DNA from: Raillietiella orientalis
Lineage: Eukaryota
Assembly (NCBI GenBank): GCA_036172245.1
Contig: JAYWIR010000003.1
Coordinates: 6,138,001 to 6,202,000, forward strand
DNA length: 64,000 nt
Direction: 5' to 3'
The notes beneath the pieces are model-generated. The model was not told the DNA's origin. It made no database searches and was given only the letters and a program-made list of their open reading frames with translations. The translations under genes were made by a program, and so were the position numbers. Position 1 is the first letter of the stretch; each line of letters begins with the position of its first letter. Of this stretch, positions 21,501-63,352 are shown piece after piece.

Positions 21501-21691
21501 TTAAGATTCATTCATTCACCTAAAACAAGCCATCGTGTCAGTAAGGGAAGGTCACTCCCCCCCCCACCTCCTGACTACCCAAATGACACCTTCAGACTTC
21601 CTCTTTCGTTTTCTTTCAATTTTTCATTCGCTTTTGTTTGGGCAGCGCAGTCCCTCATCGTGGAGCTGCGTAGCACCTTCGGCCGCACGCG

Positions 21692-30917: not shown

Positions 30918-31548
30918 CTTCAAGATAGGGGGGACCCCGGGAGGGATCCGCCCTATGAATCCAGGAAGGACTCGGAGTCCGTTCCTCCCACGCCTGGGGA
31001 GGGATCCCCACAAATGGAGATCGCCTCCACCCTGGTTGTCTCCTAAGGGGAATCCAGAAGGGAATCTCCTTCCTTATTCTCTCCGAAGAGACCCTTGGAG
31101 GGGTTCGCTCCAGTTTTTCTTCTCTGAAGGGAACCCGGAAGGAATCCGATCCTGTTTTTACTCCTGTGAAGAGAACCCAGAAGGTGACGCTCCCGAAATT
31201 CAGAAGGACGCAGCTTCCCCGAAGGGATCGGCCCGCGTCTCTGCACTCTCTGGAGAGGTGGTGGCGACACACCTACTCCATCAGTACGACGCGGAGGGTT
31301 CCCCCGGGATGGGGGGGGGGTCCGCTCCTTCACAACTGGAGAGGGAATTACCCGCTCCTCGATTCCTGGAAGGACTCGGTGGTCGACTCCCATTTGTCGC
31401 GGCCCTCATCGGGGGGGCATCCGGTTTTAACCGCTGCCAGTGCCGCACCCGGATGAATGCAGGCCAACCAGAGTCCTCTTGTGGGGTGAACTCGGAACCC
31501 AAGACGCGTCGATTCCTTCGGGGTATTCGAACCCACGACGCATGGTGC
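30918..31548 (-). mobile_element. tRNA-derived SINE-like element, copy 3 (head truncated)
   Basis: B-box remnant GGGTTCGAATACC near 31525; body motif ccctatgaatccaggaaggactc; internal ~40-bp subrepeats. Confidence 0.7.
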
Positions 31549-31867: not shown

Positions 31868-32054
31868 CGGAAAGCCCGACATCGAAATGGACCGGTTCAA
31901 AATGGGGTACATGGGTTTCCCTTGCATTCTCAAACTGTATTGTCCCTTGGAAGCCCAATTCCGACACACATTGAAATGCACTCTCTTTTTCCAGCAGGAG
32001 CTGATAATAGCTCATCTCTTCACCCACAGCTCATTATACTGCAATAGAGTGGAC
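31868..32054 (-). pseudogene. Inverted partial duplicate of V-ATPase a exon 1 with the start of intron 1 and 33 bp of upstream sequence
   Basis: The reverse complement matches 34162-34316 (EEMSYYQ...QFEN identical in protein) and 33819-33851, joined at a GTGA microhomology. The start codon region is missing and the donor is changed GT to GC. Confidence 0.9.
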
Positions 32055-34142: not shown

Positions 34143-34259
34143 ATGACTTGGATTTTCCGAAGTGAAGAGATGAGCTATTATCAGCTCCTGCTGGAGAAAG
34201 AGAGTGCATTTCAATGTGTGTCGGAATTGGGCTTCCAAGGGACAATACAGTTTGAGAAT
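34143..34259 (+). CDS. ATP6V0A: V-ATPase subunit a coding exon 1
   Basis: [39 protein letters not shown] matches the family N-terminus (FRSEEM...CVSELG..G.VQF.D); donor GTAAGG at 34260. Confidence 0.93.
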
Positions 34260-36409
34260 GTAAGGAAGCACATGTACTCCATTTTGAATCGGTCCATTTC
34301 GACGTCGGGCTTTCCGGTGCAAATAAGAATATGCAAAGCGTTCTTTTGTTGAAACAGTGCTAATGATCACAAATAATAATTAAAAGTTTTGGAAATTTTC
34401 GTTTGCATTTCAGCTCGGGAGCACGAGATGTCCGGTGTCCTAGAAAAGCTCTGTTTCCAGAACGTTCGCGCAATTTTCTAAAGGGTGCGAAAAAAATTGC
34501 ACAATGCGTAATTTCTGGAGAAGAAAGTGCGCGCAACACGCAATGCAATGGGATGTAACGAAATCAGTTCACGTTTTGTGGATCTTTCCTAAAGGATGCG
34601 CGATTCAGCATGAACGCGTGGATTCGTACTCTGAGCGACGGACGTGCAAATGGTCGTGCAAGGATGCTGCTGTACATGATCGTACGCTCGCGGACGCGCG
34701 TGCGAGGTTGCCGGGACAACGCCGTCGGGTTCGAAGGGTCGATGGATGCCGTGTACCATCCCCGCGTAGAAAGATGGACTGACAGTGTCCGTTGCTTTGG
34801 CTCGCAATTCACGCTGGCTCGGTGTGTTTCGTGTCTGATGTGCCTCACCGTGTGGTAGACCTCGGTCCTCTGTGGTTTTTGGAAAGTGGACGAGAAACCC
34901 AATGAAAATGGAATGCAGACAGCCTTTGGGCCGACCGCGCTCGGAAAAGAGGTGCGCGCCCTCAAGAAATAATGTACGCTCTTTAAGTCGATTTTGCTGA
35001 AAATCGAACAGAAGCATTTTAGATGATGGGCTGAAAAATTTTCTGCTCGCGATAACATAAACTTTCACTCGAAAGGAACTTTAATCGCTATTTCGTTTCC
35101 ACAGATTATCTTAATACTTAGTACTTGCCCAATAGCAAACACACACACAAAAAAAAAATGAATCAATTCCACTTGAGCTTTTAAAAGTCTGTTGTGTCTC
35201 GGGTAATGGGATACGCTTAAAAAGAAGAAGAAGAAGAAAAAAAAAAAAAGATTGTAGATTCCATAAAATGGGCAAAAATAATTGTGTGTTTAGCAGGAGA
35301 ACGCAGCGTCAATGAAATCTCTTCTCGAAATGGCCGCTCGGGGAGTGGGAGGCTCGGAAAAGTTGACGGATTGAATTTCGAATCTGGCAGTTGGGGGGGG
35401 GGGGGGAGGAGGAACCAAAAACAACAGGTGCGAACTTTTTCGTTCTGGAATTGCAGGTCAACTCTGAAGGATGTCCTCTGAATCGCAAGTTCACCGCTTG
35501 CATAGAGAGATGCGTCAAACTGGAGCAGCACCTCCAGTTCCTGAAACAGCAGTGCGATGCTTTGCAGATTCCCACCCGGAAGCCCACCCAAGAGGAAGCT
35601 CAAAGGGTTCCTTCCCCATCATTCCTGGAGGGCCTCGCAGTGAGTTTGAGAAGTACTTGGGCTGGTGGGAGCGAAAGGGCTTTCGGAACGATGGGTGCAT
35701 CGCATTCCAATGCAAGCAGAAACGCTGATAACCGCCCTTGGCGCGGTTATGCACTCTGAGTGGACTGTGAATATGTCACTCTTCGTCCTTCCCTGAAATC
35801 GGAATTCTCAGATTGAGTTTGAGAGTTATAGAGTTTAGAGTTTACTTCTCTACGCGGATAACGATGCCATACCGAATACACATTAAAAAGTTGGTCATTC
35901 CACTTTTAATGGAAACGTTCAAATGCTTTGGGGTAAGGCACCCTTTTCGGAAGGGGGGGGGGGGAGGGGGGAAATCATGCGAAGCATTCAGATGTACTTT
36001 GAGAATTCTTTTTCGAAATAGGAAAGTTTGCAATTCGTCCCACCGATTTCTTGAATGTACAGAAAGTGGGAATTTGCAAGTTGGAAAGGAAGAAAAATAC
36101 CGATGTAGCTTATTGGATGCACAATAGCGAGATTGGCATCTTCCTTTCTCACTTGCCTTCTTCCCTTCTGTTCATCATTGATCATCATCATTATTATTTG
36201 GTGCAATCTGTTTCCCCATTTGCGTTCTTTGTACACGGTTTGCGAACATTCTTAAAATGTGAACTTTTCGATCGCTGCCACCGACTCACCATTTCTTTGA
36301 ATTGAAATTCAATTTTCAAAGGTTATCCCTATCACAAAAATTCGACCTGAAAAGTCATCCCCCAAGGTGGATGCACTGAATTCAAAGGATTCATTCGTTA
36401 CCTTCTGTT

Positions 36410-36440
<31 letters not shown>

Positions 36441-39400
36441 AATGAAAACAAATTGACCTGTGCTTTGTTTCCGATGTTATACTTTCTGTTTGTTTATTCA
36501 CGAATGCCACTTGAAGATCTCCTCCATTTCATTAAAGGGTGACCGATATGGATCTCAAGTTCTGCTTTGATGCTGCATCATCGATTACCGTCCGAATATT
36601 TCTCCTTCCATTCTCCGTTTCGAGATGCTCGAACTCGGTCCACCGTGCACTTTTTTTCCGTGACGCATTTCAGCGCGGATGACGTCATCTCATCCGGAAT
36701 TCAAAGATTCTCAGCAAACGATTCCCAACATTTCCGACAGAATGCTTCTCGCGATATGAGAAATTTCAATTGGCCTTTTTCCCTTTAGGCATCGTTCTGA
36801 AAACGTCTGCATGCATATAAATTTGGACATGGTTTTGTTCATTCTGTGGAACCAGTGCGGTACGATGGAAGGTTGCGTCAATCACGAGCCTAAAAGTAAA
36901 AGAAATTTCCAACTTGAATTGGCCGGAAGAGACCCACAAACGCAGCATAGATTAGGCACAATAGAAGTTGAGAATGGGTCCATTCCGGGAGGGGAAACAA
37001 GTCCAGTTTCCGTATGCAGATTTTTTTTTTTTTCCCCCGATATTCAACACGAAATTAGGGGTCAAGGGACGAAGGTGGGATGCGATTCCACAATATTCCC
37101 TGCGGCCATTCTTATTCGGGATATCAACCGAAAAGGTCTCCGAAAAGAGCGATTCGACGAGCCTATCCCGACGAGTGGCACTTTTGAAAATACATTGCCG
37201 TCTCGAGATCGACTTCTCAGGATGAAACTCTCGAGGGCAGGCGAGACCGCCAGCTTCTGAAAAAAAAAAAAAAAAAAAAAAACAGTCTTCCTGCTGAATC
37301 ATTCAAGTAGGATATATTTGTTATTAGAAAATGATTGCGCAAATAGTTGAGGATTAATCCACAAGGCACTCGCTTTGTGCATCGACTTTATCGCGTTGTC
37401 GTCTTAAAGGAATGCGCAAACGCAATCCGTTATTTTGCGGGCAGTCAATTCGTTGCATCAATTCGATGTTCTTCGTGCAGAAAAAAAATGTCCTTTACAC
37501 GGAAACGGCCGTTGCACGGTGGACGCTTCTATTTGTTTTTGGTTTTCGATCCCAGGCATCGGATTTTCTCCCTATCCCAAGCGCGGGATAAGGTGTGGTG
37601 AATTCTTCCCGACTGCCGGTTAATCTCCCAATCGTTCCGAGATTTTTGATGAAAGTTTGGCAGAGCAGCAGCATATCTGCTCGGGAATGCTTCAGCATGC
37701 TCAGAAACAGAATGCTTTTCTTTTTTTGCAAATCTTAATTGCAAAATCTTTTTTTTTTTTTTTTTTTTCTTCAAATAGCAAGATCTAAGATATCTAAATG
37801 GGTATTACATTTATTGGAACCACGCAAAGCTTGTTGAGCATCATGAAATTCGTAAGATGATTAATTCGGAATTCATCACGTGATTATCAACTTCTGATGA
37901 AGCGCGATGAACTGACACCAAGCAGATTTGTACTTTCGTGATCCCTCGTGAAAAAAAAAAGAAAAAAAAGGAAGAAAAAAATCTTTCGAATATCCGCCAT
38001 TTTGTTTCTTAGTGTTGAGAACATCAATAGCAATGATTTTCGTAGAAACGGCAATTTATTTCCACGTGTTAATATCCGTATTAGTATTTTGTCATGTATT
38101 AATTTGTGGTCCGGATTTTTCAAACAAACATGAAAAGCATATTGCTAATGAGATTGTTTTTTTCTCTCGAGACAAAGGCTAAGTGATACCATTTGCACGC
38201 ACTTTCGAAAGCTGCTCGTGATTAATTGATCCTGAGTCACTTCCTTTCCCTTCTCCCTTTCTGGCCATAGGGCAAATCCAAAAGTTCCATTCCTGCTTTC
38301 CATTTCTAAACTGATTTCCAAAGTGAATGGATAGTTGTCCGTTTCGAGTTTGCGCTCTCTAAACATTTAACTTAGAATTTTCTCCTTGACATGTTTCTCT
38401 TGAGCTGACAGCTTCGCTTTGGGGTCCCTGGGATTATGATGATGATGGTGATGCTTCTTTGAAGTACATCCCCACATCCAACTGATCGCTTTTCGTACCA
38501 CACTCAGCACACAACGACTTTTCACATCGATGCTTCTTTTTTTCTTCTTTTTTTTTTTTTCGTACCCATTTGCACGTGAAATTTCGGTTTGCCATCATCT
38601 TCTAATAAAGCTGACTTGGTTGCTCTTCTTGCCGATGGGACTTTCAGTTCCCAATAAACTAAGAGTGCGATTATTGAGTTTTGCGCTGCCGCACTGTGGT
38701 TGCTTTTCAGCCTCGGTTTCTTCCTTTTCAAAACATCAGTCCCAAGGTTTGCCCCGTTTTCCTCAGCCAGGATACTCTCATAGTTTTAACACTGACTGAC
38801 TTCTCGAAAGTATATTCTGCCTCCCCTTTCGAGAGATTGATTGGATCTTTTGTTTCCAAAGCTTCTTCTCTACAGAAACAACCGAAAATCGTTTCCCCTG
38901 ATACCGCTTAACTGATTTCGAGTGCTTTACCATTATAAGGCTTCATTCACTCTGACAGTCTTCCATAGAGGTTTGTTGTTTATCGAAGTATTTATGCAGA
39001 AGATGTATCTTTAAAATAATGGATAACATTCAATGTCGTGTTTTGTTTTTGAACTGAGCAGCCGGAAATTTCACTAAGATGACCCCAGGATTGAACCGAG
39101 AAAAATGCAGCTGCAGATAAAGCTTTCCTCCTTCGTCATTTGCTCCGAATGAGGAAGCATGTTTCACTCATATGTCCCCGGATGTGCAAGATTCGTGTTC
39201 ATTTTCTCAGTACATTGTGGCTGCTTTTCCGAGAGAGCCACGTTATGTTCATTTTTTACCACATCCTGTACCATAACATGAGGGCATTGTACATTATGAT
39301 GTCTCTCTTCAGAACCAAGAGTGGGAAGCATTTTTAGATATTCTTTTTTGAAACACCGAGTTCCATACACTGCAGCTCTCTCGAGGAATGTTTATTTGAA

Positions 39401-42400
39401 TCTTTCTATTCATCCGAAGAGCAAATTTCATATTTCATCTTTCATTAAAAGGGGGATTAGGAACCGCTTCGGGATTCCCTCGGCGATGCTGGCTTCTCTC
39501 AGCAAAGAAAAAAATCCCCGTAAGTGTAGGATCGGCAGAATTTTCGATCCCGAGAACCACTTCAAGCATTTCTTTCACTGCTGCCGCGCTGATTATTATC
39601 GTAGATGTCAGCAATTTTCCACTGCGACACAGTATCTTTCACGATCACTATGGGTTCATGGAGGCTTCAATCATTCGGTAGGCTTCTCTCGGCACGATGA
39701 ACTCTGCAATCCGTTGCTTTCCTGAGTCTGAGGTTTTTTTCGTTTTGGTTCTCTTGCATTAAGCACTTTTGTGTTCATGATCTGCCGTCCTCATTTTGAA
39801 AAATTTCGTCATGCTTCCTTTGGAAGTTACTCTCTTTTATTTTTACTTGTCTCAGCATCTGCATGAAACGACCATCATCTGGCGCAAGAGAACGATGTGC
39901 TTCACAAATGGCAAAATCTCCGCTTTGTGGTTACATACACATGCACTATTTGAGCTTGAGCAATGACCATTGCATTTCTTCTCATACATCTGTGAATGGC
40001 CCAAATGTTCTTGGAATAAATGTATGCAACAAGAGCTCGTAAATGCATGACAATTTCTTTGAGAAGATTCATCAAGATGTGATCTTCCCTGAGTGCCGCC
40101 GAATGATACTAACACAAATATCGATTGAATCACAAAATAAACGATGATATTCGCTGGTTGATACTGGTAAACAATCATAAGTTGCATAAAGAAAGACTGT
40201 AATAATAATGATAATAATAATTCGAGCAAGCCATAATCGTAATTTTGCTTAAAAGTAAGCTATCTTAAAAGAAAAAGCGAAAGTCGCTCACACTGTGAAG
40301 AGACAAACCCCTGTTTCAATTTCAGTCTTTTTAAATGTGCTCGTGCATGATGAGGAATCCCTTACTTTCTTCCTCTTTGTTATCGAAATTTTGCACCATT
40401 TAGACGAATTCATATTTTTCATGAAATTGTCGCAAGTGATACGTATCACTTTGTGTTTGTTAACAGATATGCAATCGAGCGCTAATGGTTTATCCAAATT
40501 ATCTTCAGTTTCCTATCAAGAGAGCACATTTTCCGAGATATTCTCTCTTGCGATTGATTAGCCTTAGAACTGGGAAGTGTGAGATTTCTCGTTTCTTTCA
40601 ACTCTCCTCGGAAAAAGGGTTTCCTTGTGTGTGTTTTCCCTCGAACACGAATCCATTAAGAAACATGTAATCAGTAGCTTTTGAAATTTTGCGTAATCAG
40701 CTTTGAGTTTTTGTGATCAGCAGCTTCAACAGTAATTTGCAAATACTACTTACAGTGCAAGATCGTGGAAAGGTCACGTGCTGCGGAGGAGAGGACATAG
40801 TAATCGTGGAAGCTTCGAGAAAAATTTTTCAAAAGTTGTGTTTTTGAGGATGCATGGTGGTTTAGAACAAGTTTTTCGTTGGGGTAACAAAACTGGGAAA
40901 GAAGAATTGAATGATTCGGTTTTCAACTCTGTAAATATTTGTTTGGAGAAGATTCATATAAATGATGTTTTTTTTTCAAAAAAAAAAAAAATAATAATAA
41001 AAGGAGCATCGTATGCATACCGATGAGCTTATTTCCTCCTGTGGAATAATCTATACATCAATAATACCCTCTATCGCAGTCATCGCTTCTATCCCTCCCA
41101 TTTACAATCCCGAATAAGCTCCATTTCTTTGATGATTCGTTTGCTGCCAAATCTGTTAGATTCTGATCATTTTAGTTGATCCTGATGAAAATCTCGTGCT
41201 TTCTAAACAGAGATCGTGTGTGTTCGAGACACCTTCTAAGTACAAACAGTGTGATGAAACGTGTAAGCTAATTAAATGAATAAATGCCCAGCCACCTGTA
41301 TGCATTTCTTTGATGAATATTATTTAATTTAATTAGATCTGCACAACGTGTACATACATGCATTTATGTGTATTTAATGTAAACAATCTAAACATATCTT
41401 GTTCTTCGCGTGATTCCCGAATTCTCAAAGACTCTCGGAGATGACTATTTCTCTCGTGGATAACTCGAGAATCCTCAGAAACCTAAACAGTTATAGCATC
41501 GCTCCATACTTAATCTCTTGAAAGTTTCAGATTCATTTCATTGCAACGAGAAAAAATTGCCAAGTCGCGAAGAGAACAGCACAACAGGGTGGGGATTTTA
41601 AAGCATCGTATTTTTCGTCCTTGGAAACTCTTAATGGGGCAGTGCAAAAATTTGTGGAATTGCATAGTTGATCTAATGTTTAAGGTGATGACTCATCGTT
41701 GCCTGTTGCAAAAGGGATGACATAAAAAATAGACTTTTGCACATAATGTGCTACTATAAATCCCTTTAGGAAGAAAAAAATCATTTCTCTTCCAGTCAGC
41801 GAATCGGCTTTTTCTTCATAAGACTCGTAAAGGTCAATGTCGCCATTGTCTGTAGCAAGTTTCTCTTTTCTCTGCCGGCCCTTCCAGACCATCCGGATAT
41901 ACATGAATGCAAGAGTGGAAAACAAAACAAACTATCCGGATGTACAGGAGGTCATTTCGCTGCAAGAACGGCTCCAGAATAGCATTCCTCCGGTGCTTGA
42001 GGAGAGCAAGAAAACCTCGGTTTTTGCAGACAATACCCGCAAACTACCGGTCAAGCGATAAGCGAGTCGCAAGTGCACCAGTGCAATGACTACAATACAA
42101 TGGCTACAGTCACGTGTACATTTTGTATCCATGTACACTTGTAGATTTCTCATGCACATGCAAAGCTGTCACATGATTAATCAGTGCTTTATCTCTCTCT
42201 AATCATGCGTTCCATCCTCGGTTACAGGATCAAGGAGTCATCTGAGTCATCGTAACTATATAGAAAATAATTCGAGCCCACACCACATTCTGCAAAACTG
42301 CTGACTTATTAATGCACCCTGTGATAAACAAGAGCCCTGGAAAGAGCAGTCCAAGTTCTCCTTGAACTGGGCTTATTTTCACTTGAACGATTTTCGATAC

Positions 42401-45400
42401 TTAATGCGGAAGTGGGAAACGATCCCCTGCAACTCCAAATCAGACCTCTTTGCAGGATTTCCACACACTTCACAGTGCTTTTCCGATGACCTGCTTTGCT
42501 TTTGCACAGTGAGATGCAGAACTGCTTTCAGGTGGTGCTACCATGAAACAGACCATACTGAAACACTCGGTCAAGTTTCCTATTGAGTTTAAAAAGGAAG
42601 CATCAGGAAGCTTTTCTTCTCTGTTTGGTTTGCGGGACTTTTTTTTTTTTTGTATGAAATGCTTTTTTTTCGGAGAACTCGTGGTTTGCATGGCGGACTC
42701 GATAGAATGTTCATTTGTACCGTGACTCAGCCAAGATTTGCAGATGTCTATACCGAATCCATCGTGTAGAGAAAACTTCGTCCTATGTGCATATTTGCAC
42801 TTTGCAACCTCATCTGGTCGAGTGCGCTCAAATTTCGGAAGTTTAACCACACTGTACAGCTCACATCTTTTACCGGGGCGAAGTTAATTTTTCAAACAAA
42901 TTTCAATGAACGATAATTTCAAAACATAAAAGCAATTTCCAAACAAACATTATTCAGTCTTTAATTTTGGTGCAAATACTTGGCAAAAACCTTTTTGCCT
43001 CATTCGTTCTTGGTTTCGCCGTTAGTTTAAATGTGATGCGTAAATTATTTACTAAAACAAAAAGTTTATGTATCACGTTCAGAGTGTGAACCCTACTCAA
43101 GTATGATTCAAAATTCAGTCTCTCTCTTCAGTTCACAATTCACAATTTTGTTACGCTTCTGATCACACAAAACCCACATGCAAACACATTTCCCGTATTC
43201 CTGAAATAACTTCATTTTCATGGTTTTGGATTCGTACACATCTCTGTCCGCGTACCGTTGAAACGTTTTTAGAAACATATAGAATCTATCGCAAGAATTT
43301 TTTTTTTCCTTACGTGTTTGGTAATCGTGTGCTCATCAGGATGCATTCTGGAATAGGGGATTTTATTATAAGGCTACGAGTCGTAGCGACAGAAAATAAG
43401 GAATTACTATTTTCACTTCACTATCCAAAATGCAATACGACCTCTTCTGTGCTTTACGACTTTTATTATTTCATTCGAGAAGAACCATTGGCTCTTCCAC
43501 TCGAAGTATTTGAGTTATAACTCAGTTATGTGACTTTCTGTTCGACTCCTATATCAAAGAATGGTTCCATTCAATTCCTGTTACGCCCGAAATTTTGATT
43601 TCAACACTTTCAGACAACTGCAAGAGTAGCTTGAAGAGATGACTATTCCGTGAAAACTATTTGCCTTCTGTATTAAATACTGTATCGGAATGATAGCGTG
43701 ACACGAAATTTGTATCATTATTTCTTTGTACCAAGTAAGCTATTATTCCTTTCTGATGAAATAAGCTGGCATCTCGGATTCTTAACAGGATGATTTCTCG
43801 AGCTTCATGCTGCCGAAATGCATATTCTTTCGCATGTTACCTAAATAGAAGAGAGTAACCTATTTCACGGTTATTCTGCTATGGAACTGTAGTATTTACT
43901 ATCCGTTCATCAACATTACGCAACGAAATTTTTCAAGATGGACCCTAACGGTGCTCCTCGCTGGCAAAGCTAATCGGAAACTCCATAACGTTACTGTGAA
44001 ATTCAACGTTGGTTAACCATCACATGGCAAAAATGCCTTATTGACATTAATGTGTAGACGTCCACGTGCTATAATGATCACCTTTATCGCTTTTTTTAAG
44101 AGGGCACCCTCTTTTCCATGTTGAGTTTTTTCGGAACTGCCAGGCGCAGGAGCGAGAAAGACACAATGATAAAGCGTACCAGTTACCAGCTATAAGCAAT
44201 TTTTTTTTTTCTTCCAGTCATTACTTCTGCTGCTGCTTCATCCTTTTCTTCTTTCACTGTTCTAACATCTGAAGCAAGTGATCGTATCTAATTTTACTTT
44301 GTGTTTCTTAGGCTGAAGTAGAGGAGATGGCAGAGGAGATCCAGATGCTGAACAAAGGAACAAGAGCACTAGAGAAAAAATTGATGCACCGATATGAATA
44401 CCGAGAAATTTTGCAAAGATCTAAAAAGTATTTGAAAAAGGTATATGTTTTTTCAGAAATCTGACTCATGTTGTGGATAAGGCATGTCAGAGCTTTGTAC
44501 AACTCGTTTATTGTAGACTGATTCAAGACCTGAAGGAATTTCACAAAATCTTGAAAAATTCATTTTCTGTTGTTTGAAAATGCGACCCGACGGCGGTGTC
44601 AGCATAGTATAGTACAGCATTGAAAATACATAATATTCATATTTGAGTAAAGCAAAAAGATGGCTTCGAGAATGGAAGCAAACATTTTGGTTTCGTTTTT
44701 GTTTCACATGGCGTCAAGTTTTGTATAGTACAGCAGATTCAGAGAGCTGCCGAGTTTATTTTTTCAAGTAACTCTTTCTGATGGTTGGATTGCTGGAGTA
44801 ATGGAGCGTTCGCCTATCGCTGTGCAAAAAAGCATTTTCCAGTTTGTGCCAAGCATTAGCATTTCTTATCAGATTATTTACAATGATACTGAAGCTTATC
44901 TGAGTATCCCAAGGAATCTTTATCCAAATCAAGCATCATAAAAGCTGGACGAAGTGCTCAAGAAGCTTCTGCCCAAATACAAGGAAATTTTACTCGCAGA
45001 TTTTAGATGAAAATTTCATCATCGAGTGCAAATTATTTTGGGGAACTGAAACTTTAATTTGCTTCGCAACCGCCAAGTAGAGTTTGCAGATTCGGCAGCT
45101 GTGTTGCAATTTGGTTTCTTTCTGGATTTTACATTCTGTACACGTTGTCTGTGAACGTGCTTCATTTACAAGCGGAGGATCGGTGCGTTCGCATTCAGCT
45201 TTTAGATCATTCTTTTGAAAATTCCTCAACTTCCCAACTCATCCCATAATGCAAACTGTTTTTGAATTCTTAAAATAACGTTAAACGTGGAATCTGAATT
45301 TTGAAACGCTAGATTCGCAGCTCGCTTATGCTCACCAGGTGATACGATTGAGAAGACGTACCACACCATTTCACTGGAGCAAAATGGGTGCATTAATGAA

Positions 45401-48400
45401 TAAAAACGTCAGAGCAGCAACGCCAAAATGAAATGTGGATTGTGTGAGGGAAATCTGAACACTGAAATCAGACACCTGATTTCATCTTGTTCATGTTTCT
45501 GGAAGTTCAGTTTCACTTTCGTTCCGTTGCTGATAGCCTCCTCATTGCAGAGCAATCGCAATTCTGCTTTCTTCAATGCTTCCAAGCGACGGGTTGAGAC
45601 ACCTCAAAGGAAATGATCTCACTTCGAAAATTATAAATCATTGGGCTCTAGAAAAGGAAAGATTTCAATTATTCGCAACGGATTATCCTCCCTCCCCCCA
45701 TGAAATTCCGCTCCTGGTTTTCTCCCTAAACTTTACTCAACTGCAACTTAAAGGAATTTCTTTCTTATAGAGGAATAATTTTATGACAGCTCAAGAGAGT
45801 GTGATATTGAGAATGTTTTTCTTTGAAAACGTCGTTTTTTTGTAATTTAGTTTGAAACTTTTCGAGCATCTGAGTGCAAGTTTTTTTTCTTGATTCCATG
45901 CTTTGGAATTACATCGTTTCAAGGAATTGGAGTTGTTCACGTAATATAAGAAACCGAAATGGACATACAGAGGGAAAGACTCCAAATACGGGAAGAATGA
46001 AATCATTTATGCTCCTCAGAAACAGCTTCAGAATCTGTTGTTCACTCGAAATATTTGTGAAAGATAATTCAATCTCCTAAGGAAACACACATATTTTTCA
46101 AGTGTTCATCTCCGATAAGGAGAAAGTCAAATAATTGCACACAATGCCTGATAGAATGAAGCTATTTGCGCGTTATTTGGATTATGACGGTATCATACTC
46201 TGAATGAAAGTATTAAACAAATAATACTGATTGCAATGTAATCTCATTAAATGATATTCTGTTCGAAAAGTTCGTTGCATTCATGTGCTAAGTACTTGAA
46301 GTAACAACTAAAAATATTTAGTTGTAGGTGGACTTGTGTGAGTTTGACGGAGAAAATTTTGAAATGCTAAAGCTCTCCATAACTAATGCTTTCTAACCAA
46401 ATAGGAAAATATTGGGATGGCAAGGTTTGATAACTTCAATGTGATAACTCCAGACAACTGAAAAGTTGTCCAATCTAAACTCGCAGAACTTATAGATGTT
46501 TTTGCATTGATCTCCGGAGGAAATTATATCTTTATTCACGATATGAGTAGAAAAAAAAAAAAAAAAAATCACGTGAATGGTATCTTCACGTAGATGTAAT
46601 ATCATTTTCAGGAAAATGGAAAGCATCTCAGGGAGCTTTCCAAATTAGCATCTGATAGTAATCCGTTTTTGTGTTGCTTAGCATAAGTTTAGCCGTGTTC
46701 AGGATTTATTGCTTAGAGCATCTTCAACATACCAGTGAATGTTTTCTCTCTGATATTGAAATGAAAAAAAAAAAAGGAAACCCCTTTTTCTGTTATTTTC
46801 TGATATGGATTAAACTTGGGAAAAAATTGGGGAATGCTTTGGGGAATCAAGTGAACTTTCAATACATGACATCGCGAAAGTTCACGTATGAATAAGCTTT
46901 AGAAGCCACTGTGTTAAAATATTCTTCAGTTGATTACATATAATGTAGAATATGGATATAGAACCTATTTCAAGAACATAAACTGAAATAAATAAACTGT
47001 ATACTTTTTGTATAACGAATGAGTATGCGTTAGAAATGCATTAGAAAAATAAGCCGAAAAACCGTACTCTTCAAGGAATGAGGCATAGAAAAAAGCATAA
47101 GATAAGAGAGCACGATGGGAACGTAATTATAAAAGTCGATGCTCAAATCAATTTTACGAAATTAAGAAATAAAACAAAGGGTTGGGGAATCGAAAGTTGT
47201 CCTGTGAAAGAGGAAAGGACATGTCCTGAAAGAGAAGTGCACGTGGTCCTGAGATGCTTAAACCTGCACTGATTATTACATCTCAAATGCAGATTAATGC
47301 TTTAAATATTGATACAACATCACTTGGTGGAACATATGAAAAATTTCCATTACACCATGAGCAAGTGATTTCATAAAACACAATTTTGCACATTGTAAAC
47401 AACGGTGATTTAAACATTCAGCCAAGTTTCTCGACACAATTTTTTCTTTATGAATCTGCATGTCCTCTATCAGAAATATTAATTCGTATTTCGGTCAATG
47501 TTTCCATAAAGTCGAAATCGAGTGAAATAAACACAAACTGAGATATTCTGATTGATTTCTTAGACTGGAAACGTTGTGGTACTCAGATTTAGTGTTTCTG
47601 TAGGTCCACATGGCTGCTGTCATTTCCAACAGGGCATTTCGAAATCATAATACTGATGAGAAACTTCTTCCACTCATTTGCATACTTTACAAACTTTTTG
47701 GGAATTTTTCGTGACTCTGTCAACCAAAATCACTAGAAAAGATCGCGCAAAGCATTCAGCTGAGAATTTCAGCGGTAACTGCAGCAAATCTTTCAAAATA
47801 TCTAGAATCAATAGATCAAAGACTATCGTATTTTCTAATGCTCATGACGATGTTTTTGTGCTAACACTAATGTGATTACCTATTATACTTCAGAGAATAT
47901 GTCGCTCCGAAAGGAATATTCTTCAGATAAATCCTAATTCTTCTATCCAATATTCTTTTTTGTATGTGAAAATATCTTCGTTTCATAAAAATGCAATAAT
48001 TGTGCTTTTTAAGATAAGACTACCATTCTCAGGTAAACTCATGTAATACGGCATAGTTTCCTCTTGTTTTTGCCAGGCAGGGAAATTCAGTTCTAACGAT
48101 GCCTATTCAGAAGTGACAGAGGCACAGCCAGATGAGAAATTACTCTTATTAGCAGAAGAAGAGATGACTACTTGTAGGTCAGTAACTAAGACATAAATTT
48201 TCAAAATCAAATGTGAACAATCTAAGTTTCTCACAGTACTCCCACCCAGCTGAAAAACCGATTTTTGATCTGTAGAACGGCTATGCATTTCACCAGGCAT
48301 CAACATAAATACTCCACTTTTTGCACTTTGGAGGATCGATGAGAATAGGTTTCAGTTTCCGCTTGGTACAGAGAATGGATGTTGTTAGGATCTCTCTTGA

Positions 48401-51400
48401 AATACTGAAGGAAAAAAACACTGTCGTATATCATACATACTAAAGAGCAAAATTTTCGAGATTTCAAGTATTTTATTTTATTTTTTTCTTTTAAATGCTT
48501 ATGACGAGGTTTTAGGATCATTTTTTCAGGACTTGAAATGTCGCAATGTCGCAAAATATTCATTCAGTGGAATGTCTATGTAAAGCATTCTGTCTTCTAT
48601 ACAGATTTTTGTAATTTATGTAGATGCACTCATTATCTTTCTTCAATATGCTACCAAAGGTTTTATCAAAAGTTTTTTCTTATTTATATCCTTAGCCGGA
48701 AGAAGAAAGCGAAGATGCTGCTATCGCTGTTTCCAGTGTATCCTTAGACGTGTTATCTTCCAGGCATACGAACAAGTTCAAGCAGTTAGGGTCAGTATTT
48801 TTATACCAGAAGGCTACAGATAGAAAGAAATTCATACCGAATGCATTAGGTAACAAATAGGACAAAGCTGATTCCGTTTAGGGATGTATACACTAATTGA
48901 TTACAGTGGATCCTTGTTCAATCCTTCATTTCCTGATCTGAATTCCTATCGTGTGACTGAGTAAATATATTTATTTGCAATTTATTCCATAGGTTTATAA
49001 CAGGTATCATCGACCGCTGCAGGGTCGTGGCGTTTGAAAGAATGTTGTGGAGAATAAGTCGTGGAAACATTTACTTCGTACATGAAGACACCGAAGAGAT
49101 AGTCTTTAGAACGAAAGTACGAATCTTTCAATATACAGTTTATTCCAATAGTTTTATCCAGAAATCATCATTAGGTGTGAAGAGGTCATTCTTCATCGCA
49201 AGTTACGTTGGAAGACAAATGTCTATCAAGGTAGAAAAAGTATGTGAAGGTTTTCACGCTTGCACATACGAGTTACCTAAATCGTTATCCGAAGAGCAGA
49301 AAACAGAAACTGAAACGGAGGAATTAATACGGGATTACACATTTGTGAGTTTATTTTATAAACAGGCATTCGTTACTTGAAATTCCAATTTCGTGAAATA
49401 ATTCATAAGCACTTTTACCTTTTAAATGACGAAGCATTTCGAATATCAAGGGGAACAAACTGCTCAAGAATCATGAGGTGGACTAAGTTTGATTATGCGA
49501 TTCTTAAAACCCAAAGCTTATTTATGGGTTTAAGCATTCTTATTTATCGTTACAAAAGGATTCAATGCCACTGTTAAAACATCAACGAGCAATAGGCAAA
49601 TACGTGAAATGAATGTTGCAGATGTCCGATTCATTGAAAGCTTCGGTATGGATTTTTCGTTGAACTGTACGATGAGCGAATTTAATTCACTTAAGAAAAG
49701 CGGCACAGACTCAATGCATCTGCTGCTTTTGCGCGAAAGCAGCAATTAAACCGAGTGGAAAGAAAGTCCCAACTGCTTTCGCAAGCAGCTTTGCAAGACA
49801 AACGTCTCTCAAGGCACAAAAGATATGTGCAAAGGTTCTCATGGTGGCACATACGAGTTGCCTAAATCGTTCTCCGGAATATCTTTCTACGGAAATCGAA
49901 ACGCAACTTCAATCCCAGCCTTTCCTTCCTGTGGGTTTAGAGAAACGCAACGTCCAGGATGCAAGACATTCTCTGCCTGCCGGCCGTGCCATCTCTTCTC
50001 CTTCAGCTTGACACTGACTGTTTGCAACCCGCCCGCTGTGCGTGTGCCTGCCGTGTTTTGGCTTTGCGTGTTGGGTTCCATCGGGAATCGAACCCGCTCG
50101 AGTTTTCCGGACGGTCCGCTTTACTGCTTCTCGCAGACGTCCGGTTGTGTTACAAAATCAAATCGAGGAAATTCCACTTGCTTCAAATAAAGACGAGCTC
50201 TTCCAGCAGCCTCAAGCACGATCGGAAAGAGCGGAATCCATGTTGGTTCAAATAGAATCGGTAGGTGGAAAAAAAATCAAAATTCAAATTGGTTCACTAA
50301 TAATCCTGGAAAATAAACCTATCAACGATGATGACTTCATTCAGCAAAAGAGTTTTTGCTATTTTCTTTTTGATACCCCTGCTTTCACGTTTTGAAAATC
50401 TCTGCAAAGAACTCGTGTTGTCGCCTTACGATTTCGAAAGCCCGTGATTGTATTCACTCTCTTCCAAGTTAGTACTGATTGTGCTCGAAGGTTAGTTTCA
50501 AGAGATTCCTTATGTGGGCGTAAGCTTCCAAAAGATGGTTCCCCAAATCCTCTGATTCACTTTATGCTTGAAAAATGCAAAGTAATTGCGGATTGCTTTC
50601 AATAATTCATAAAGTGAAAATCATCGTCCACTCTTGATAAGAATTACCTCATCGTCATAGCTCAAGTTCATATTTCATCAAACGCTCACTCAAAGAATCA
50701 TGTCATCAGCATCCTCCTGTTTCGAATCGGAATTTCAAAGTGGTTTCCTTCTGTCGTTTTTTTCTCACCTTGATCTTAGCCAAAAGGCCGAGAAGAGATA
50801 TTTTCACCATGGAAGATGGAGAAGGCTCATTGCGCCGAAAATTCGGTAATATTCGCTGTTGGCTTGCTAGGTAAAAACTTTGGGTGCGGGGACAAGCAAA
50901 CAAGAGCAAAATACAAACAAGTGATTTGTTTTCAAGTAAGAATTTGTTTTGCCTCCTCCTCCCCTTCTCAATTTCAATTTTAAGCTCCATCTCACTGATC
51001 AAGGATTCGAAAAATTCAAGGCCCAATGCATCATCTGTTTTTCGATCCGTGTCATGATTACCGTTAGCGAAGCATCCTGGAGATCAGACTGGACTCTCGT
51101 TTTCGAAGGAAAGCAGAACCGAAATTTTTTCTCAAAGAAACAAAAAAAACAGACATTTTGATTCTTATTTTGAAATCTAAAACTATACTATAAGGAATAA
51201 TTAGTATAAACCAAACCTTTTGAAAATCGAAAGCATTGATAATTTGTTGCACATAGCCGAATCAAAAAAGCCAAACAAAAACAATTCATGAGAACGAGTA
51301 GTAAGCTTAAGAATAGCCCGAGAGAAATAATTTGTTTTAGGGTTCCTATTGCTCAGCTTAGTCGGTTTCTTTTCGAAGAAGAATGAAATTGTCAATCTTC

Positions 51401-54400
51401 TGCAACACGCAGAATTCAGTAAAATTCTTCATGTTATCGATTCCTTGCAGTTCTTGATTTCTTTATACTTTGGAATTTTATGATTGTTCTTAAAGTATTC
51501 AAATGACTGCAGTACTCTGTTTTTGTAGGATTGAACGGTTTGGAACAAGAACACAGTATAAGAAAACCAAGTCGCGTATTTTGGTTTAAGGGCTCAGTAT
51601 ATAATTGTATTTTTTTTTTTTTTTTTTTTTTAAAGGGGGAAAGTCATTTATTGGAAATTATGGAATCCATATTAACTCCAACTGAGCTAATGCTGAGTCT
51701 TTCCTGATTTAGTTAGCAGTTTTTCTCAATAGTACTTTTAGTTTCTAATAAGATAAAAAAATAAATGCTAAAAGAAAACATAGATGGACACAATACATTA
51801 CTATTCCTCAAGTTCTTGGTCGCAAACTTCCAGGAAAAGCCTCAAGAAAAAAATGAGTATGAAACTCGTCTGATACGGTCTGGCAGAAAAGAGTCTTTTA
51901 ATCTTGATGCTGACAAGAAGTGATTTTTATTGACCCGTTGGTTGTCTGCAGGAATGAGCACTTTGATCAGACTAGAACGTGTAAATAAAAAAGAGTGAAC
52001 GACAAGAAACTTTAAGGGAAATAAAGCAAGACTCTGGATAACCGTCTTGGCAAAGCAAACAGAGGAAGCAAATAGAGTCCAGCATCTCAGAGTGGATGTA
52101 GCAAACATGAAAATGTATACGGTCCATAAAGGCGAACGAAGAGAAAACGGTGGTCACATTTTGTTCCAGCAGCACCAAACAAATGGATCATCATGTGCAT
52201 AGAAATAAGAATAATCAAATGGTGAAACCATATTCATACGAAACTCAAAATGCATTTTCAATGTGCTATCATACGACTTCGTATTATTATACAAAGCGTA
52301 CATCAAGCATGATGGGAAACAGCTTAATGAAATGGTGCTTTAAACTGAAAACCGGTACCTGTAACAAAAGTTCTGCAGGTAAGTAAAAAATACTCACAAT
52401 CTTTATATTTTCAAAACATAAAGATCTTGTTGAACGGGATTTTCGAATTCTGAGCAGTACCCCCAGGAGGGGTAACCCTAATTGCAACCGGCTGATAGGG
52501 ACCAAATGACACATTGGGAGTTTGCCTAAATTTTTATCATAAGAAAAAAAAGCAGGAACGTTCTTGGAAGGTTTTCCAAGTAGATTTTTCTTCTTGGTTA
52601 ACTCCCTCTGATCACCGTCGAGTTCAATAAAGTTGAAACGTAAAAACAAAAACGAACAAACAAACCTACCAATAGAATTGCTAGACGCTAATCTGCTCAA
52701 TCCAAGTCACACGTCTTCAAATCATAGCAACAAAGTTCATTAATTACCTGAATCCTATATATTTCTTCTCGATCATCATTAGGACATCAACGAATACTGA
52801 CCTCCGAAAAATTAGCCATCTTTCCGAATAATAGGAGCAGACAACTTTGTGTTACTTGAGATTCGAAATGTTTTATTTATAGTCGATCAGAATGTATAGC
52901 ATGCAAAGTTGGCTCACATTAGAAAGGAGAAATATAAATTTCTTCTCAAAATTCACTTCAGCTATTATGTAATGGAATATAAGTTTGGTTTCTTTTCTTT
53001 GTTCATTATCTTATGATTACTAACAAAGATGTCTCCAAGAACTTATTCACCTCACATGTACTAGTACTTAGAAGAGAACGAAAAGTTCAGAAGGAAACTG
53101 CTCGTTAGAGTATCTCATGACCTCTGTCAATGGCTTCTGTTTGTGCTGAGAGCAAAGAAGACATATGCAGTTCTGAATATGTGTCAACACGTCTACATCA
53201 AGAAATACATCGAAATCGAATGTTGGATTCCGACAGAGGAAGTACCAGCAGTGCAAGCTTCACTTATGAAAGCATTTGTCAGTAGTAATTAACATGGATA
53301 ACATCAACTGATTTTGCAGAAAGAAAGTGAAACGACGTCGATGCCGGTCTTGCTGAAAATGCAGACCAACAAAGCCCCTCCCACATTTATTCGCAGCAGT
53401 AAGTTTACAAAAGCATACGTTGAACTTATCCACATGTACGGTGTGGCGTCATATCAAGAGATCCATCCAGGTCGGATTAACTAATCGCAGAACTTAATGT
53501 TTCAAGGGATTCAGCAACCGTTACCAGCATCACATTTCCTTTTCTGTTTGCCCTTATGTTCGGAGATGTTGGTCACGGCATAATTCTGCTAATTGTCGCA
53601 TCATATCTCATAGTACACGGAAAACATACAGGGTGGATTTACAAATCAGAAGTATATGCAACATTTGTGACCATTTAAAACACCAGCTTATTAGATTGGA
53701 AGTTGGTGCTTGACTGGACGCTACATGTTACTGTTGATGAGCCTATTCTCGATTTATTGTGGGTTGATATACAATGAATTCTTCTCCAAAGCTATAACAT
53801 TTTTTCCTACAGCATGGAAAAGCTACTTATCGTATGTATGTATGAATTTATTACATAATATGGAATCCTTTCAGTGCTGCGGAGATCATGAAAAACCACA
53901 TCATCGAGCTTGATCCTGTTACTGATTTTAATGATTCCCTAACATACCCCTTCGGAATGGACCCGATCTGGGGTTTTGCACTTAACTCAATCCAGCATTC
54001 CAACTCTTTTAAAATGAAGATAGCATTTATATTTGGTTTTCTGCACATGGCTCTGGGATTATCAATCAATTTCTTTAACTGTTTACATTTTAAAGAGCAC
54101 ATACGTATAATGGCTCAATTTTTCCCTTGTGTGCTTTTTTTCTGCTGTATGTTTGCCTATCTCGTTCTTATCATCATTATCAAGTGGATCAGTTACTCTG
54201 GACACATAATAGATAAGAACAGAGGAAGCCAATGTGCACCTTCTCTGCTTCTCACTTACATCAATATGCTGCTATTTAAAAAAGAATCGAATCCTTGTGG
54301 ACCTATGTTTGGAGCACAACAACAAATTCAGTACACAATTGTGATCTTGGCAATCATATCTGTTCCATGGATGATGTTCGCAGATTTGTTCTGGGCCATG

Positions 54401-54865
54401 GCAAATAGGAAAACGATCAACACAGAGTCTGTTATGCAAAATGTTATTACTGCCATAGAATTCAGTCTTGGCTGCATCTCTCATGCAGCTTCATACCTCC
54501 GTTTATGGGCTCTGTCCTTGGCTCATGCTGAAATGAGTGATGTAATATGGGTCATGATAATGAGGCCGGCTTTGCAAACACCTGGTTTCACAGGATCCAT
54601 CATGACATTTGTGGTATTTGCTTGCTGGGCTTTGCTGACCGCTGGCATGCTAGTTTGCCTTGAAGGTCTTTCAGCCTTCCTGCATACATTGCGTTTACAC
54701 TGGTAAACTACATTACTCAAAGATACTTGTGCACATCTGTGTTTCAGGGTAGAATTCCAAAGTAAATTTTACAGAGGACGAGGAACCAAGTTTCAACCAT
54801 TTACGTTTGATAACCTGGAATCAGCATGCTACCCAGATGGAGCTACAACTGCACATAAGCACTAG
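34143..54865 (+). CDS. ATP6V0A: V-type proton ATPase V0 subunit a (116 kDa; Vph1/Stv1/Vha100 family), divergent paralogue; 12 coding exons, 806 aa
   Basis: Manually joined exons 34143-34259, 35457-35639, 44312-44440, 48077-48177, 48993-49116, 49162-49344, 53065-53277, 53320-53470, 53515-53651, 53695-53831, 53875-54702, 54748-54865 (2421 nt). All introns are GT-AG with consistent phases. Family motifs: [66 protein letters not shown] (essential Arg), [23 protein letters not shown]. Confidence 0.95.
35457..35639 (+). CDS. ATP6V0A: V-ATPase subunit a coding exon 2
   Basis: ttgcag acceptor, GTGAGT donor; [29 protein letters not shown]...PSFLEGLA aligns with family LN..V..FQRKFV.EVRRC.EMERKLR.L. 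Confidence 0.88.
44312..44440 (+). CDS. ATP6V0A: V-ATPase subunit a coding exon 3
   Basis: cttag acceptor, AG|GTATAT donor, 43 codons in phase 0; [43 protein letters not shown] fits the N-terminal coiled-coil segment. Confidence 0.8.
47130..47272 (+). mobile_element. AT-rich decayed LINE ORF2 C-terminal fragment in intron 3
   Basis: KLR....GIE....[15 protein letters not shown] resembles the L.IE.....ER.C....E.E.H....C tail of non-LTR ORF2. Confidence 0.3.
48077..48177 (+). CDS. ATP6V0A: V-ATPase subunit a coding exon 4 (variable linker)
   Basis: tttttgccag acceptor, AG|GTCAGT donor; stop-free acidic linker [33 protein letters not shown]. It supplies the phase 0 to phase 2 change needed to reach exon 5. 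Poorly conserved region, so less certain. Confidence 0.65.
48993..49116 (+). CDS. ATP6V0A: V-ATPase subunit a coding exon 5
   Basis: [28 protein letters not shown], hallmark FERMLWR..RGN motif; ccatag acceptor, GTACGA donor. Confidence 0.9.
49162..49344 (+). CDS. ATP6V0A: V-ATPase subunit a coding exon 6
   Basis: [33 protein letters not shown] corresponds to family KSVF.....G......V.KICEGF.A..Y..P; atccag acceptor, GTGAGT donor. Confidence 0.88.
49779..49876 (+). pseudogene. Degenerate direct duplicate of part of V-ATPase a exon 6 inside intron 6
   Basis: aagacaaacgtctctcaagg...gcacatacgagttgcctaaatcgttctcc resembles 49196-49292 (translates ..[12 protein letters not shown] vs [12 protein letters not shown]); contains indels and has no matching splice sites. 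Confidence 0.75.
53065..53277 (+). CDS. ATP6V0A: V-ATPase subunit a coding exon 7
   Basis: W...V...K..Y..LNMC......IE.ECWIP pattern; 71 codons; ctag acceptor, GTCAGT donor. Confidence 0.88.
53320..53470 (+). CDS. ATP6V0A: V-ATPase subunit a coding exon 8
   Basis: [17 protein letters not shown]...[11 protein letters not shown]; flanked by 42- and 44-nt GT-AG introns. Confidence 0.92.
53515..53651 (+). CDS. ATP6V0A: V-ATPase subunit a coding exon 9
   Basis: [21 protein letters not shown], first transmembrane helices. Confidence 0.93.
53695..53831 (+). CDS. ATP6V0A: V-ATPase subunit a coding exon 10
   Basis: [25 protein letters not shown] motif; 43-nt introns on both sides. Confidence 0.93.
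53875..54702 (+). CDS. ATP6V0A: V-ATPase subunit a coding exon 11 (membrane domain)
   Basis: [51 protein letters not shown]; donor TG|GTAAAC. Confidence 0.96.
54748..54865 (+). CDS. ATP6V0A: V-ATPase subunit a coding exon 12 (terminal)
   Basis: gtttcag acceptor; (W)[20 protein letters not shown]...; TAG at 54863-54865. Confidence 0.93.
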
Positions 54866-55712
54866 AATTTATTGTTACTGGGTCTGCCCATAATCCATAG
54901 CAGAGGATTCGTTGTTTCCACATGGACAGAACTGCACTCCTCTTCATACTTGTTTGATGTGCTGATACAGTGACCATAAGACAGCTCATGGTTATCTGTG
55001 CTGTTCTGTAGCTCAACTTCCTTTCAGTTGTTACTTACTTAGATTCCATCGAAGTCCTGTAGTGCTGACTTTCTGACATTTCTCCCCTATTGGAACAAGA
55101 CCACAGTGTTCCTGCAGCCAAGACTGAGGGATATGAATAACATGCTTTCCTGGCCAAAGGATCCATGAAATGGCTTCAGGACTATAAAGAAAAACAGACT
55201 CCATGTTTAGACACTTTGATGCCTTGAACAAGACATGGATATTGCCAAATAAATGGTCCAGACGACCTGAAGCTGAGTCAAATACTAGGATATGTTCCAC
55301 TGAAGACTGTGGATTGCAAGTAGTTTGACCATGAACTATCTTCAAAGCTTTGAAAAAGTCTGTTTCATCTTGATCTGGAGTGACCACGATCTGACAGTCA
55401 TGCATACAAAAGTGCTTGAGCACATCAGGAGAGACAGAATCAAAATCTCCAGAAACAATGTGTGGATTAGCCAAACCTAATGACTCTCGCACATGAAGAA
55501 ACTCATTGCATCCACCATCTACACATACACGGATATGGGCTGAAGCAAAAGGAGATGTGAGGAAATAAATTTCAGCACAACTTACCATGATTCCAAAGCT
55601 CAGCTGCTGTTGTGTTCATTTTGAATGTGTTTAACAAAATTGCACACATTTTTGTTGAATCATTTTCTGTATCCAACACAGATGCAGGGAACCACAGTTT
55701 CTCAAATGTCAT
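54862..55712 (-). CDS. TPK1: Thiamine pyrophosphokinase 1; 3 coding exons (55712-55586, 55539-55039, 54995-54862), 253 aa
   Basis: Motifs ILLN, ELWN.A.IRVCVDGG.N, GDFDS, PDQDETDF.KAL, GRLDHLFGNI, CGLVPIG, TTGLRWNL, ISTSN, VETTNPLLW.M. Two introns (46 and 43 nt) with GTAAGT donors and CAG acceptors, frame-consistent. Confidence 0.95.
54868..54873 (-). terminator. Candidate polyadenylation signal AATAAA embedded in the last codons of TPK1
   Basis: The minus strand reads aac AAT AAA ttc TAG. Confidence 0.45.
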
Positions 55713-62680: not shown

Positions 62681-63352
62681 CTTCAACTTACAGGGGGTAA
62701 CCCCCACCTGTAATCTGAAGAGGAGACCTATGGAAGGACTACCTATGAATCCAGGAAGGACTCCGGTAGAAGGAGTCCGTTCTTCTCTTAAGCTTGGGAG
62801 GGAATCCCGAAAAGAACCTCTTCCTTATTCTCTCCAGAGGGAGCCCCCGTAGGGGCCTCCCCTGGAATTTCTTCTCCGGAGGAAACTTCCAAGGGAACCG
62901 CTCCTTGTTTCCTTCTCCGGAGAGAATCCCGAAGGGGCGCTCCCGAATTTTGTCTGAAGGGTTGCTCCCGAAGGGAGCAGAGCGCTTCTTCACACTCTGG
63001 AGAGGTGTCAATCCACCAGCTCCATGGTACGAGATGATACGAGGGGAGGAGGGGGAGGGACGACTACTCCATTTTCACAACCGGAGGTTGAGGAGGGGAA
63101 TGGCTGCTTGATTCCTGGAAGGACCCCGGAGGGTCCACTTCCAGTCTCGGCCGGTCAACGGGAGCATCCGGCTTTCATCGGTGCCACACCCGAAGCCCGT
63201 GGGCCAACCAACGTTATTTTGTCGGGAGACTCGTAACCCACGACGAGCTCATTTTTAGGGGTCGATGCTTCTCACCGGACGGGATTCGAACCCTCAACGC
63301 TTGCTTCCGTGCGCGCGGACGCAGCGCAGTTGCAAGGCCACCAACGCGGTCT
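62681..63352 (-). mobile_element. tRNA-derived SINE-like element, copy 4
   Basis: Minus-strand head CCGCGTTGGTGGCC...GGGTTCGAATCCC; body motif cctatgaatccaggaaggactccgg; most subrepeats of the four copies. Confidence 0.75.

Follow-up and report, generated by a model that had tools for sequence, protein, structure and literature searches.

Among the overlapping protein-coding genes of human, mouse and fly, convergent partial overlap is reported as the main class, and most overlaps are described as species-specific (PMC2330155). In prokaryotes, convergent genes can share four bases at their stop codons, in the forms CTAA, TTAA, CTAG and TTAG (PMC2174442). Giardia muris, a eukaryote with a compact genome, is reported to have overlaps in 9.5% of its genes and a poly(A) signal that coincides in part with the stop codon (PMC7641422). 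Here we describe a convergent pair from Raillietiella orientalis, in a 64,000-nucleotide stretch of contig JAYWIR010000003.1 (positions 6,138,001 to 6,202,000, assembly GCA_036172245.1; the whole stretch is hereafter the window, and all coordinates are window positions). The genes for V-ATPase subunit a (V-ATPase a, plus strand) and thiamine pyrophosphokinase (TPK1, minus strand) end in a single CTAG palindrome. This is a genuine tail-to-tail overlap, firm in its geometry, in the identities of the two genes and in the intactness of both as far as their exons were located. On present evidence the locus is a tidy example rather than a new phenomenon, as descriptions already exist of convergent overlap, of its possible consequences and of the CTAG geometry.

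Like the metazoan overlapping pairs of the commonest retained class, this pair is antiparallel, convergent and partial, but it belongs to the rare class in which coding sequence (CDS) overlaps CDS, by just 4 nt (PMC2330155). Two convergent genes ended by the same tetramer, CTAG, are catalogued among prokaryote stop overlaps (PMC2174442). Unlike those genes, both genes here are split by GT-AG spliceosomal introns (42-46 nt, and also multi-kb in V-ATPase a), and cleavage and polyadenylation are needed, with consequences for mRNA 3' ends rather than for terminators. As here, neighbouring genes of G. muris share a few bases, and their poly(A) signals overlap or adjoin the stop codons, according to the genome description (PMC7641422). 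There, however, compactness extends to the whole genome; here it is confined to a 2.65-kb block, whose setting is multi-kb introns and tens of kb that yielded no gene.

Drosophila loci that yield small interfering RNAs (siRNAs) from 3' cis-natural antisense transcripts (3'-cis-NATs), AGO2/CG7739 for example, resemble this pair in their facing 3' ends, in the complementarity of the mature mRNAs and in the arthropod-like lineage (PMC4079977). Their overlap, as reported, lies in the 3' untranslated regions (UTRs), and their siRNAs were sequenced and are AGO2-loaded (PMC4079977), whereas here the CDSs themselves meet, one predicted UTR crosses the partner's coding exons, and the pair is known from sequence alone. 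At ppk29/sei of Drosophila, one of two convergent genes has a 3' UTR antisense to the other, and regulation is proposed to take this route; that case is reported as proven by genetics and dependent on the siRNA pathway (PMC3953951), whereas regulation at the present locus is a possibility only. No published description of a V-ATPase a/TPK1 pair was met in the literature searched on overlap classes; no search was aimed at that pair.

The shared CTAG and the two genes it ends

Direct reading of the sequence places both stop codons in one tetramer:

54862-54865, both strands: CTAG palindrome with both stop codons

The plus strand frame ends GCA CAT AAG CAC TAG, with the V-ATPase a stop TAG at 54863-54865, and the minus strand frame ends AAC AAT AAA TTC TAG, with the TPK1 stop TAG at 54864-54862. 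The genes are convergent on opposite strands and their CDSs overlap by 4 nt; the initial annotation had proposed this shared-stop geometry, and all of its coordinates are exact. As in 3'-cis-NAT pairs, the strands are opposite, the 3' ends face one another and the genes overlap in the genome, at 54862-54865. No palindrome larger than CTAG was seen around the junction on reading the sequence. Since one tetramer holds both stops, the only constraint is that each last sense codon ends in C; these codons are CAC (His) in V-ATPase a and TTC (Phe) in TPK1.

How improbable is this arrangement? Over 36001-60000, CTAG occurs 19 times against 84 expected from base composition (about 4-fold rarer, with no dinucleotide correction). 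By simple counting, an open reading frame (ORF) that enters a convergent gene ending in TAG will stop in the same tetramer about once in 12 cases (1/4 for the flanking base times 1/3 for the frame), and the exact palindrome is thus unremarkable once the spacer has been lost. The palindrome is not improbable given zero spacer; the non-random part is the missing spacer. Tails of homologue length for both proteins would still leave a spacer of less than about 30 nt. Thus, both genes must long have been forced to share 3' sequence. Reading TAG as a sense codon was considered and rejected, as both alignments finish near the C-termini of the homologues at these TAGs.

The V-ATPase a gene was modelled as follows:

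34143..54865, plus strand: V-ATPase a CDS span (tblastn with homologues, profile hmmsearch, PF01496, enumeration of GT-AG introns)
34143-34271, plus strand: exon 1
35457-35609 and 44312-44437, plus strand: weak candidate exons (E 0.029 and 0.1, profile hmmsearch)
48991-49302, 53071-53277, 53320-53470, 53515-53651, 53695-53831, 53875-54702 and 54748-54865, plus strand: later exons
54703..54747, plus strand: last intron, 45 nt, CTG/GTAAAC...GTTTCAG/G, with a Trp codon split TG/G (GT-AG enumeration)
54748..54865, plus strand: terminal exon, of which 54748 is the first base (PF01496 profile positions 796-815 of 815)

The gene spans 20.7 kb from its start at 34143. A profile of 60 V-ATPase a sequences was run by hmmsearch against all ORFs of the window and located profile positions 1-88, 99-140, 175-262 and 279-832; positions 88-99, 140-175 and 262-279, all in the N-terminal half, were not found by this search. 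We identified matches to PF01496 (V_ATPase_I, V-ATPase 116-kDa subunit a) that score 290.3 bits (53846-54703), 67.5 bits (48961-49377) and 39.9 bits (53065-53289) against a cut-off of 30.7 bits, with E-values of 3.6e-86 for the first and 8.2e-19 and 1.8e-10 for the others.

The terminal exon of the model is closely determined. Six GT-AG introns would preserve the frame free of stops at the last junction, and 54703-54747 is the sole one that restores LRLHWVEFQSKF. Other acceptors were rejected, as they would remove residues of the motif VEFQ.KFY, invariant in an alignment of eight homologues. In alignment with these eight, the terminal exon keeps all 13 invariant columns, VEFQ.KFY included, and its tail runs about 4-8 residues beyond their ends. 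In the membrane part, 67 alignment columns show no variation among V-ATPase a and 12 homologues. An Arg in an invariant motif of the membrane domain is one that we take to be the essential residue of the proton path.

The protein is divergent all the same. Over the 275 residues encoded by 53876-54700 its identity to homologues is 40-49% (43-49% to those of animals), as against benchmarks over the same residues of 51% for ant and chytrid fungus and 56% for turtle and fluke. We infer from these identities that the gene is either a fast-evolving paralogue or a member of a fast-evolving lineage.

Two further stretches of the window resemble V-ATPase a sequence. One is an inverted duplication of 156 nt (31868-32023, minus strand, and 34162-34316, plus strand; 94.9% identity, with arms at 98% and 91%), by which most of exon 1 and the first approximately 45 bases of intron 1 recur 2.1 kb upstream. 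No other V-ATPase a exons follow the inverted copy, which looks like a stranded partial copy. The other is an ORF at 49750-50187 (plus strand), in the intron after exon 48991-49302, in which 25 residues match the last part of that exon at 48% identity (C.G.H..TYELPKS.S; E 8e-06, single comparison). This ORF may represent an alternative exon, or else a duplicate that has decayed.

On the opposite strand we identified TPK1 in three exons:

55586..55712, minus strand: exon 1, ATG at 55712-55710 (ORF and the N-terminus of homologues, W.P...LN.P...LWN.A)
55540..55585, minus strand: intron 1, 46 nt, G/GTAAGT...TTCAG/CC (sequence reading; model checked by translation)
55039..55539, minus strand: exon 2, catalytic domain and start of the thiamine-binding domain (PF04263 6.1e-25, PF04265 8.9e-08)
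54996..55038, minus strand: intron 2, 43 nt, A/GTAAGT...CACAG/AT, phase 1 (sequence reading)
54862..54995, minus strand: terminal exon 3 (PF04265 profile positions 36-67 of 67)

The gene is 0.85 kb long and its spliced CDS of 762 nt encodes 253 amino acids, with one terminal stop. PF04263 matches at 55034-55615 (87.8 bits, cut-off 30.7) and PF04265 at 54865-55023; the latter domain is split over two exons, which score 32.1 and 25.4 bits against a cut-off of 22. Exon 2 keeps 22 of 22 columns invariant among 15 homologues (including DG, GDFDS and Q..TD..K). The terminal exon keeps the invariant columns G, S, T, S and N, with the STSN motif, and the length of its tail is at the upper end of the range (nine homologues in both comparisons). 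No frame break occurs in any located exon of V-ATPase a or TPK1. The Pfam matches and the homologue alignments confirm the gene identities that were first assigned to the pair.

Relatives of both genes are distant. The closest TPK matches are 43-44% identical (67 of 77 candidates passed), and the closest V-ATPase a matches by BLASTP are about 45% identical. Of 589 confirmed metagenome loci that encode V-ATPase a, the best 80 were kept, all at 45% identity or less. TPK was found by tblastn with 67 TPK proteins in none of these 80 loci, a weak negative as most of the contigs have roughly the length of one transcript; just 24 of the 80 extend at least 1 kb downstream of the V-ATPase a match. In a quick maximum-likelihood tree of 64 TPK proteins, the TPK1 of the window has a long branch (0.99) inside a 96%-supported clade of 36 rows, in which all 13 named members are arthropods, and it groups weakly (81) with a barnacle and two crabs. 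On this tree the TPK1 lineage is arthropod-like, with no finer placement.

Predicted 3' ends and complementarity of the mRNAs

Any 3' UTR of either gene is necessarily antisense to a coding exon of its partner, and complementarity of the two mRNAs is obligatory. The initial annotation had drawn the same conclusion about the UTRs, which follows from the sequence; the predicted extents are unequal between the two genes. A scan of both strands for 14 variants of the poly(A) hexamer provided candidate signals:

54868..54873, minus strand: AATAAA formed by the Asn-Lys codons of TPK1, a predicted poly(A) signal (hexamer scan)
55183-55188, plus strand: TATAAA in TPK1 exon 2, first hexamer past the V-ATPase a stop, of putative use
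55248-55253, plus strand: AATAAA in TPK1 exon 2, next after TATAAA, of putative use

Both AATAAA hexamers had been reported before, the first in the Asn-Lys codons of TPK1 and the second, inside TPK1 exon 2, as the first on the plus strand. Reading of the sequence and the scan agree with this, and the TATAAA variant comes earlier, at 55183.

On the TPK1 strand, AATAAA is followed by UUCUAG, a U/GU-rich stretch, CA at 54851-54850 (18 nt past the hexamer) and GUUGUAG at 54849-54843. AATAAA, CA and a GU-rich element in this layout match the pattern of a canonical animal poly(A) site. The next hexamer on the minus strand, CATAAA, is 355 nt further on. TPK1 transcripts are thus predicted to be cleaved near 54850, which would give them a 3' UTR about 12 nt long and some 16 nt in common with the V-ATPase a mRNA and CDS. 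Between 36 and 60 kb, AATAAA is found 0.00106 times per nt on each strand, which gives a probability of approximately 0.04 for a given span of 40 nt.

On the plus strand, the scan of 14 variants found no usual poly(A) hexamer between the V-ATPase a stop and TATAAA at 55183. Only about 0.4 AATAAA are expected on this strand in 383 nt, so the gap alone is unremarkable. The V-ATPase a UTR is predicted to be about 320-415 nt long and, in antisense orientation, to cover exon 3 and intron 2 of TPK1 with part of exon 2.

Origin of the overlap and competing explanations

Our preferred reading, which we hold with moderate confidence, is that the shared CTAG is the passive end-point of local compaction, a tail-to-tail overlap of two intact nuclear genes and not a purpose-built device. 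A deletion would have removed what was left of the spacer between V-ATPase a and TPK1. Both frames would then have run a few codons past the usual ends of their homologues, into unconstrained tail codons, and have ended in a single tetramer that reads TAG on either strand. Without a non-coding spacer, insertions or deletions at the junction would hurt a coding tail or else a signal for 3' processing. The junction would thus be frozen, even if the DNA of the locus grows elsewhere.

In operation, the AAUAAA within the Asn-Lys codons of TPK1 would direct cleavage of its transcript near 54850, and the V-ATPase a mRNA would run antisense through TPK1 and end past 55183 or 55248. In a cell with both genes active, the RNAs would be complementary over 16 to about 400 nt, and V-ATPase a polymerases would cross most or all of TPK1, with mild mutual interference at most to be expected. 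The poly(A) sites, the compaction history and any interference are what we infer; the junction itself is read directly.

Zero spacer fits the compact style of the 2.65-kb block 53071-55712, which holds nine exons and seven GT-AG introns that fit 42-46 nt. The last five V-ATPase a introns fit 42, 44, 43, 43 and 45 nt and the TPK1 introns 46 and 43 nt. The 5' introns of V-ATPase a are approximately 1.2 to 8.7 kb long, and intron length is thus strongly bimodal within one gene. The initial annotation had called the packing phage-like and odd at a locus with multi-kb introns and 34 kb of gene-free DNA. No protein-coding gene was found in the GC-rich part of the window among the ORFs compared with Pfam. 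The oddity is less than was supposed, as the 3' block of both genes is compact throughout its seven introns of 42-46 nt. The overlap is of an ordinary tail-to-tail kind, convergent overlaps being reported as the commonest class in animals (PMC2330155).

Several points weigh against this reading. Both 3' ends are sequence predictions, and the history of compaction is told from a single locus. Four of the five short V-ATPase a introns were picked among frame-preserving GT-AG options of 28-109 nt, so the range of 42-46 nt is partly a matter of choice. The nearest relatives found, only 43-49% identical, are too distant to date the junction or to gauge its conservation. Self-similarity within the window amounts to 6% of 1-34 kb and 3% of 60-64 kb, which gives no demonstration of later repeat-driven growth of the flanks. 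CDS/CDS overlap is also reported to be strongly under-represented in Metazoa (PMC2330155), so a neutral origin is not the general animal default.

The likeliest alternative, which we think unlikely on balance, is a selected regulatory device in which one gene supplies a natural antisense RNA against the other: the long V-ATPase a 3' UTR against TPK1, or the other way round. It might work by double-stranded RNA (dsRNA), by Dicer-2/AGO2 endogenous siRNAs (endo-siRNAs), by editing or by transcriptional interference, with the genes coupled or anti-coupled. The complementarity that such a device requires is forced by the geometry, and TPK1 falls in the 96%-supported clade whose 13 named members are arthropods. 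Precedents include cis-NAT siRNAs from 371 convergent 3' pairs of Drosophila (PMC4079977), regulation of the convergent gene sei by the ppk29 3' UTR (PMC3953951) and mRNA duplexes reported for yeast convergent genes with short spacers (PMC6993858). However, Drosophila cis-NAT pairs without siRNAs are reported to be at least as numerous as pairs with siRNAs at every expression level (PMC4079977), overlaps are described as poorly conserved among animals (PMC2330155), and there is no evident functional link between V-ATPase a and TPK1. By analogy, dsRNA, endo-siRNA, editing and polymerase collision may be regarded as possibilities with arthropod precedent, as far as the Drosophila reports describe it (PMC4079977, PMC3953951). 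The interpretation first offered for this locus is partly supported: its geometry and the obligatory complementarity hold, and a regulatory role is a possibility.

A stronger version can be imagined, to which we give little credence. In this version every 3' signal lies inside coding sequence (that of TPK1 in its own, that of V-ATPase a in its partner's), two essential genes of an animal-type nuclear genome are expressed without dedicated non-coding DNA between them, and selection keeps the obligatory sense-antisense pair as a switch by which the supply of thiamine cofactor is tied to a tissue-restricted V-ATPase a paralogue.

An error in one gene model, with another terminal exon or an unseen splice that moves its stop away from the CTAG, is about as improbable; the CDSs would then not overlap. 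The V-ATPase a tail is 4-8 residues longer than those of eight homologues and the TPK1 tail is at the long end of nine; both tails are unconserved and both 3' ends are predicted. However, the Pfam profiles are matched to their final positions (815 of 815 and 67 of 67) within these exons, and the stops are a few residues from the ends of the homologues. Without these TAGs the frames would gain 35 and 10 codons, further from the family norm. Tails of homologue length would leave a spacer of less than about 30 nt, and the UTR overlap would remain.

An artefact or a dead locus, with a spacer lost by assembly error or one gene an unexpressed pseudogene or paralogue remnant, is very improbable, as the unusual divergence of V-ATPase a (40-49% over 275 residues), its three unlocated stretches in the N-terminal half and the inverted partial exon 1 copy 2.1 kb upstream are set against 67 V-ATPase a and 22 TPK1 invariant columns all kept, located exons without frame breaks, and clean termination of both frames in a palindrome, which would be rare from random deletion.

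If both genes are expressed as modelled, the locus would be a clean natural illustration of how tightly an animal-type gene pair can be packed, with a 4-nt CDS overlap, a poly(A) signal in Asn-Lys codons and one 3' UTR across the exons of the partner. It would also be a convenient test bed for polymerase collision, for 3' end choice and for production of small RNAs from cis-NATs. The minimum consequence is that each mRNA holds sequence complementary to the other; transcription of V-ATPase a through most or all of TPK1 is the probable one.

Surroundings of the gene pair

Both genes are in an AT-rich island. GC content is 0.51-0.66 in 1-34 kb, 0.33-0.41 in 36-60 kb and 0.50-0.57 in 60-64 kb, with sharp steps, and V-ATPase a exon 1 is at the island boundary. 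The 113 ORFs of at least 75 amino acids from 34-64 kb match no Pfam family except for the V-ATPase exons (one LRR_5 match is below the cut-off). Nine long ORFs of the GC-rich parts match no Pfam family, and searches for tRNA genes, Rfam families and tandem repeats gave no match. A bacterial or contaminant origin of the GC-rich flanks was considered and is unsupported, given the nine ORFs without a Pfam family and the lack of tRNA or Rfam matches. The ORFs of these flanks overlap on both strands, as in non-coding GC-rich DNA.

The GC-rich flank holds a direct repeat of 889 nt (3467-4355 and 21688-22575, 18.2 kb apart, 98.2% identity) with a sharp left edge. The pair may represent a segmental duplication or the termini of one large element; five long ORFs between or across them match no Pfam family. 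We also identified a short, GC-rich family of interspersed repeats at 60-85% identity (approximately 12232-12648, 29896-30198, 30912-30973 and 62719-63194), which flanks the AT-rich gene island on both sides.

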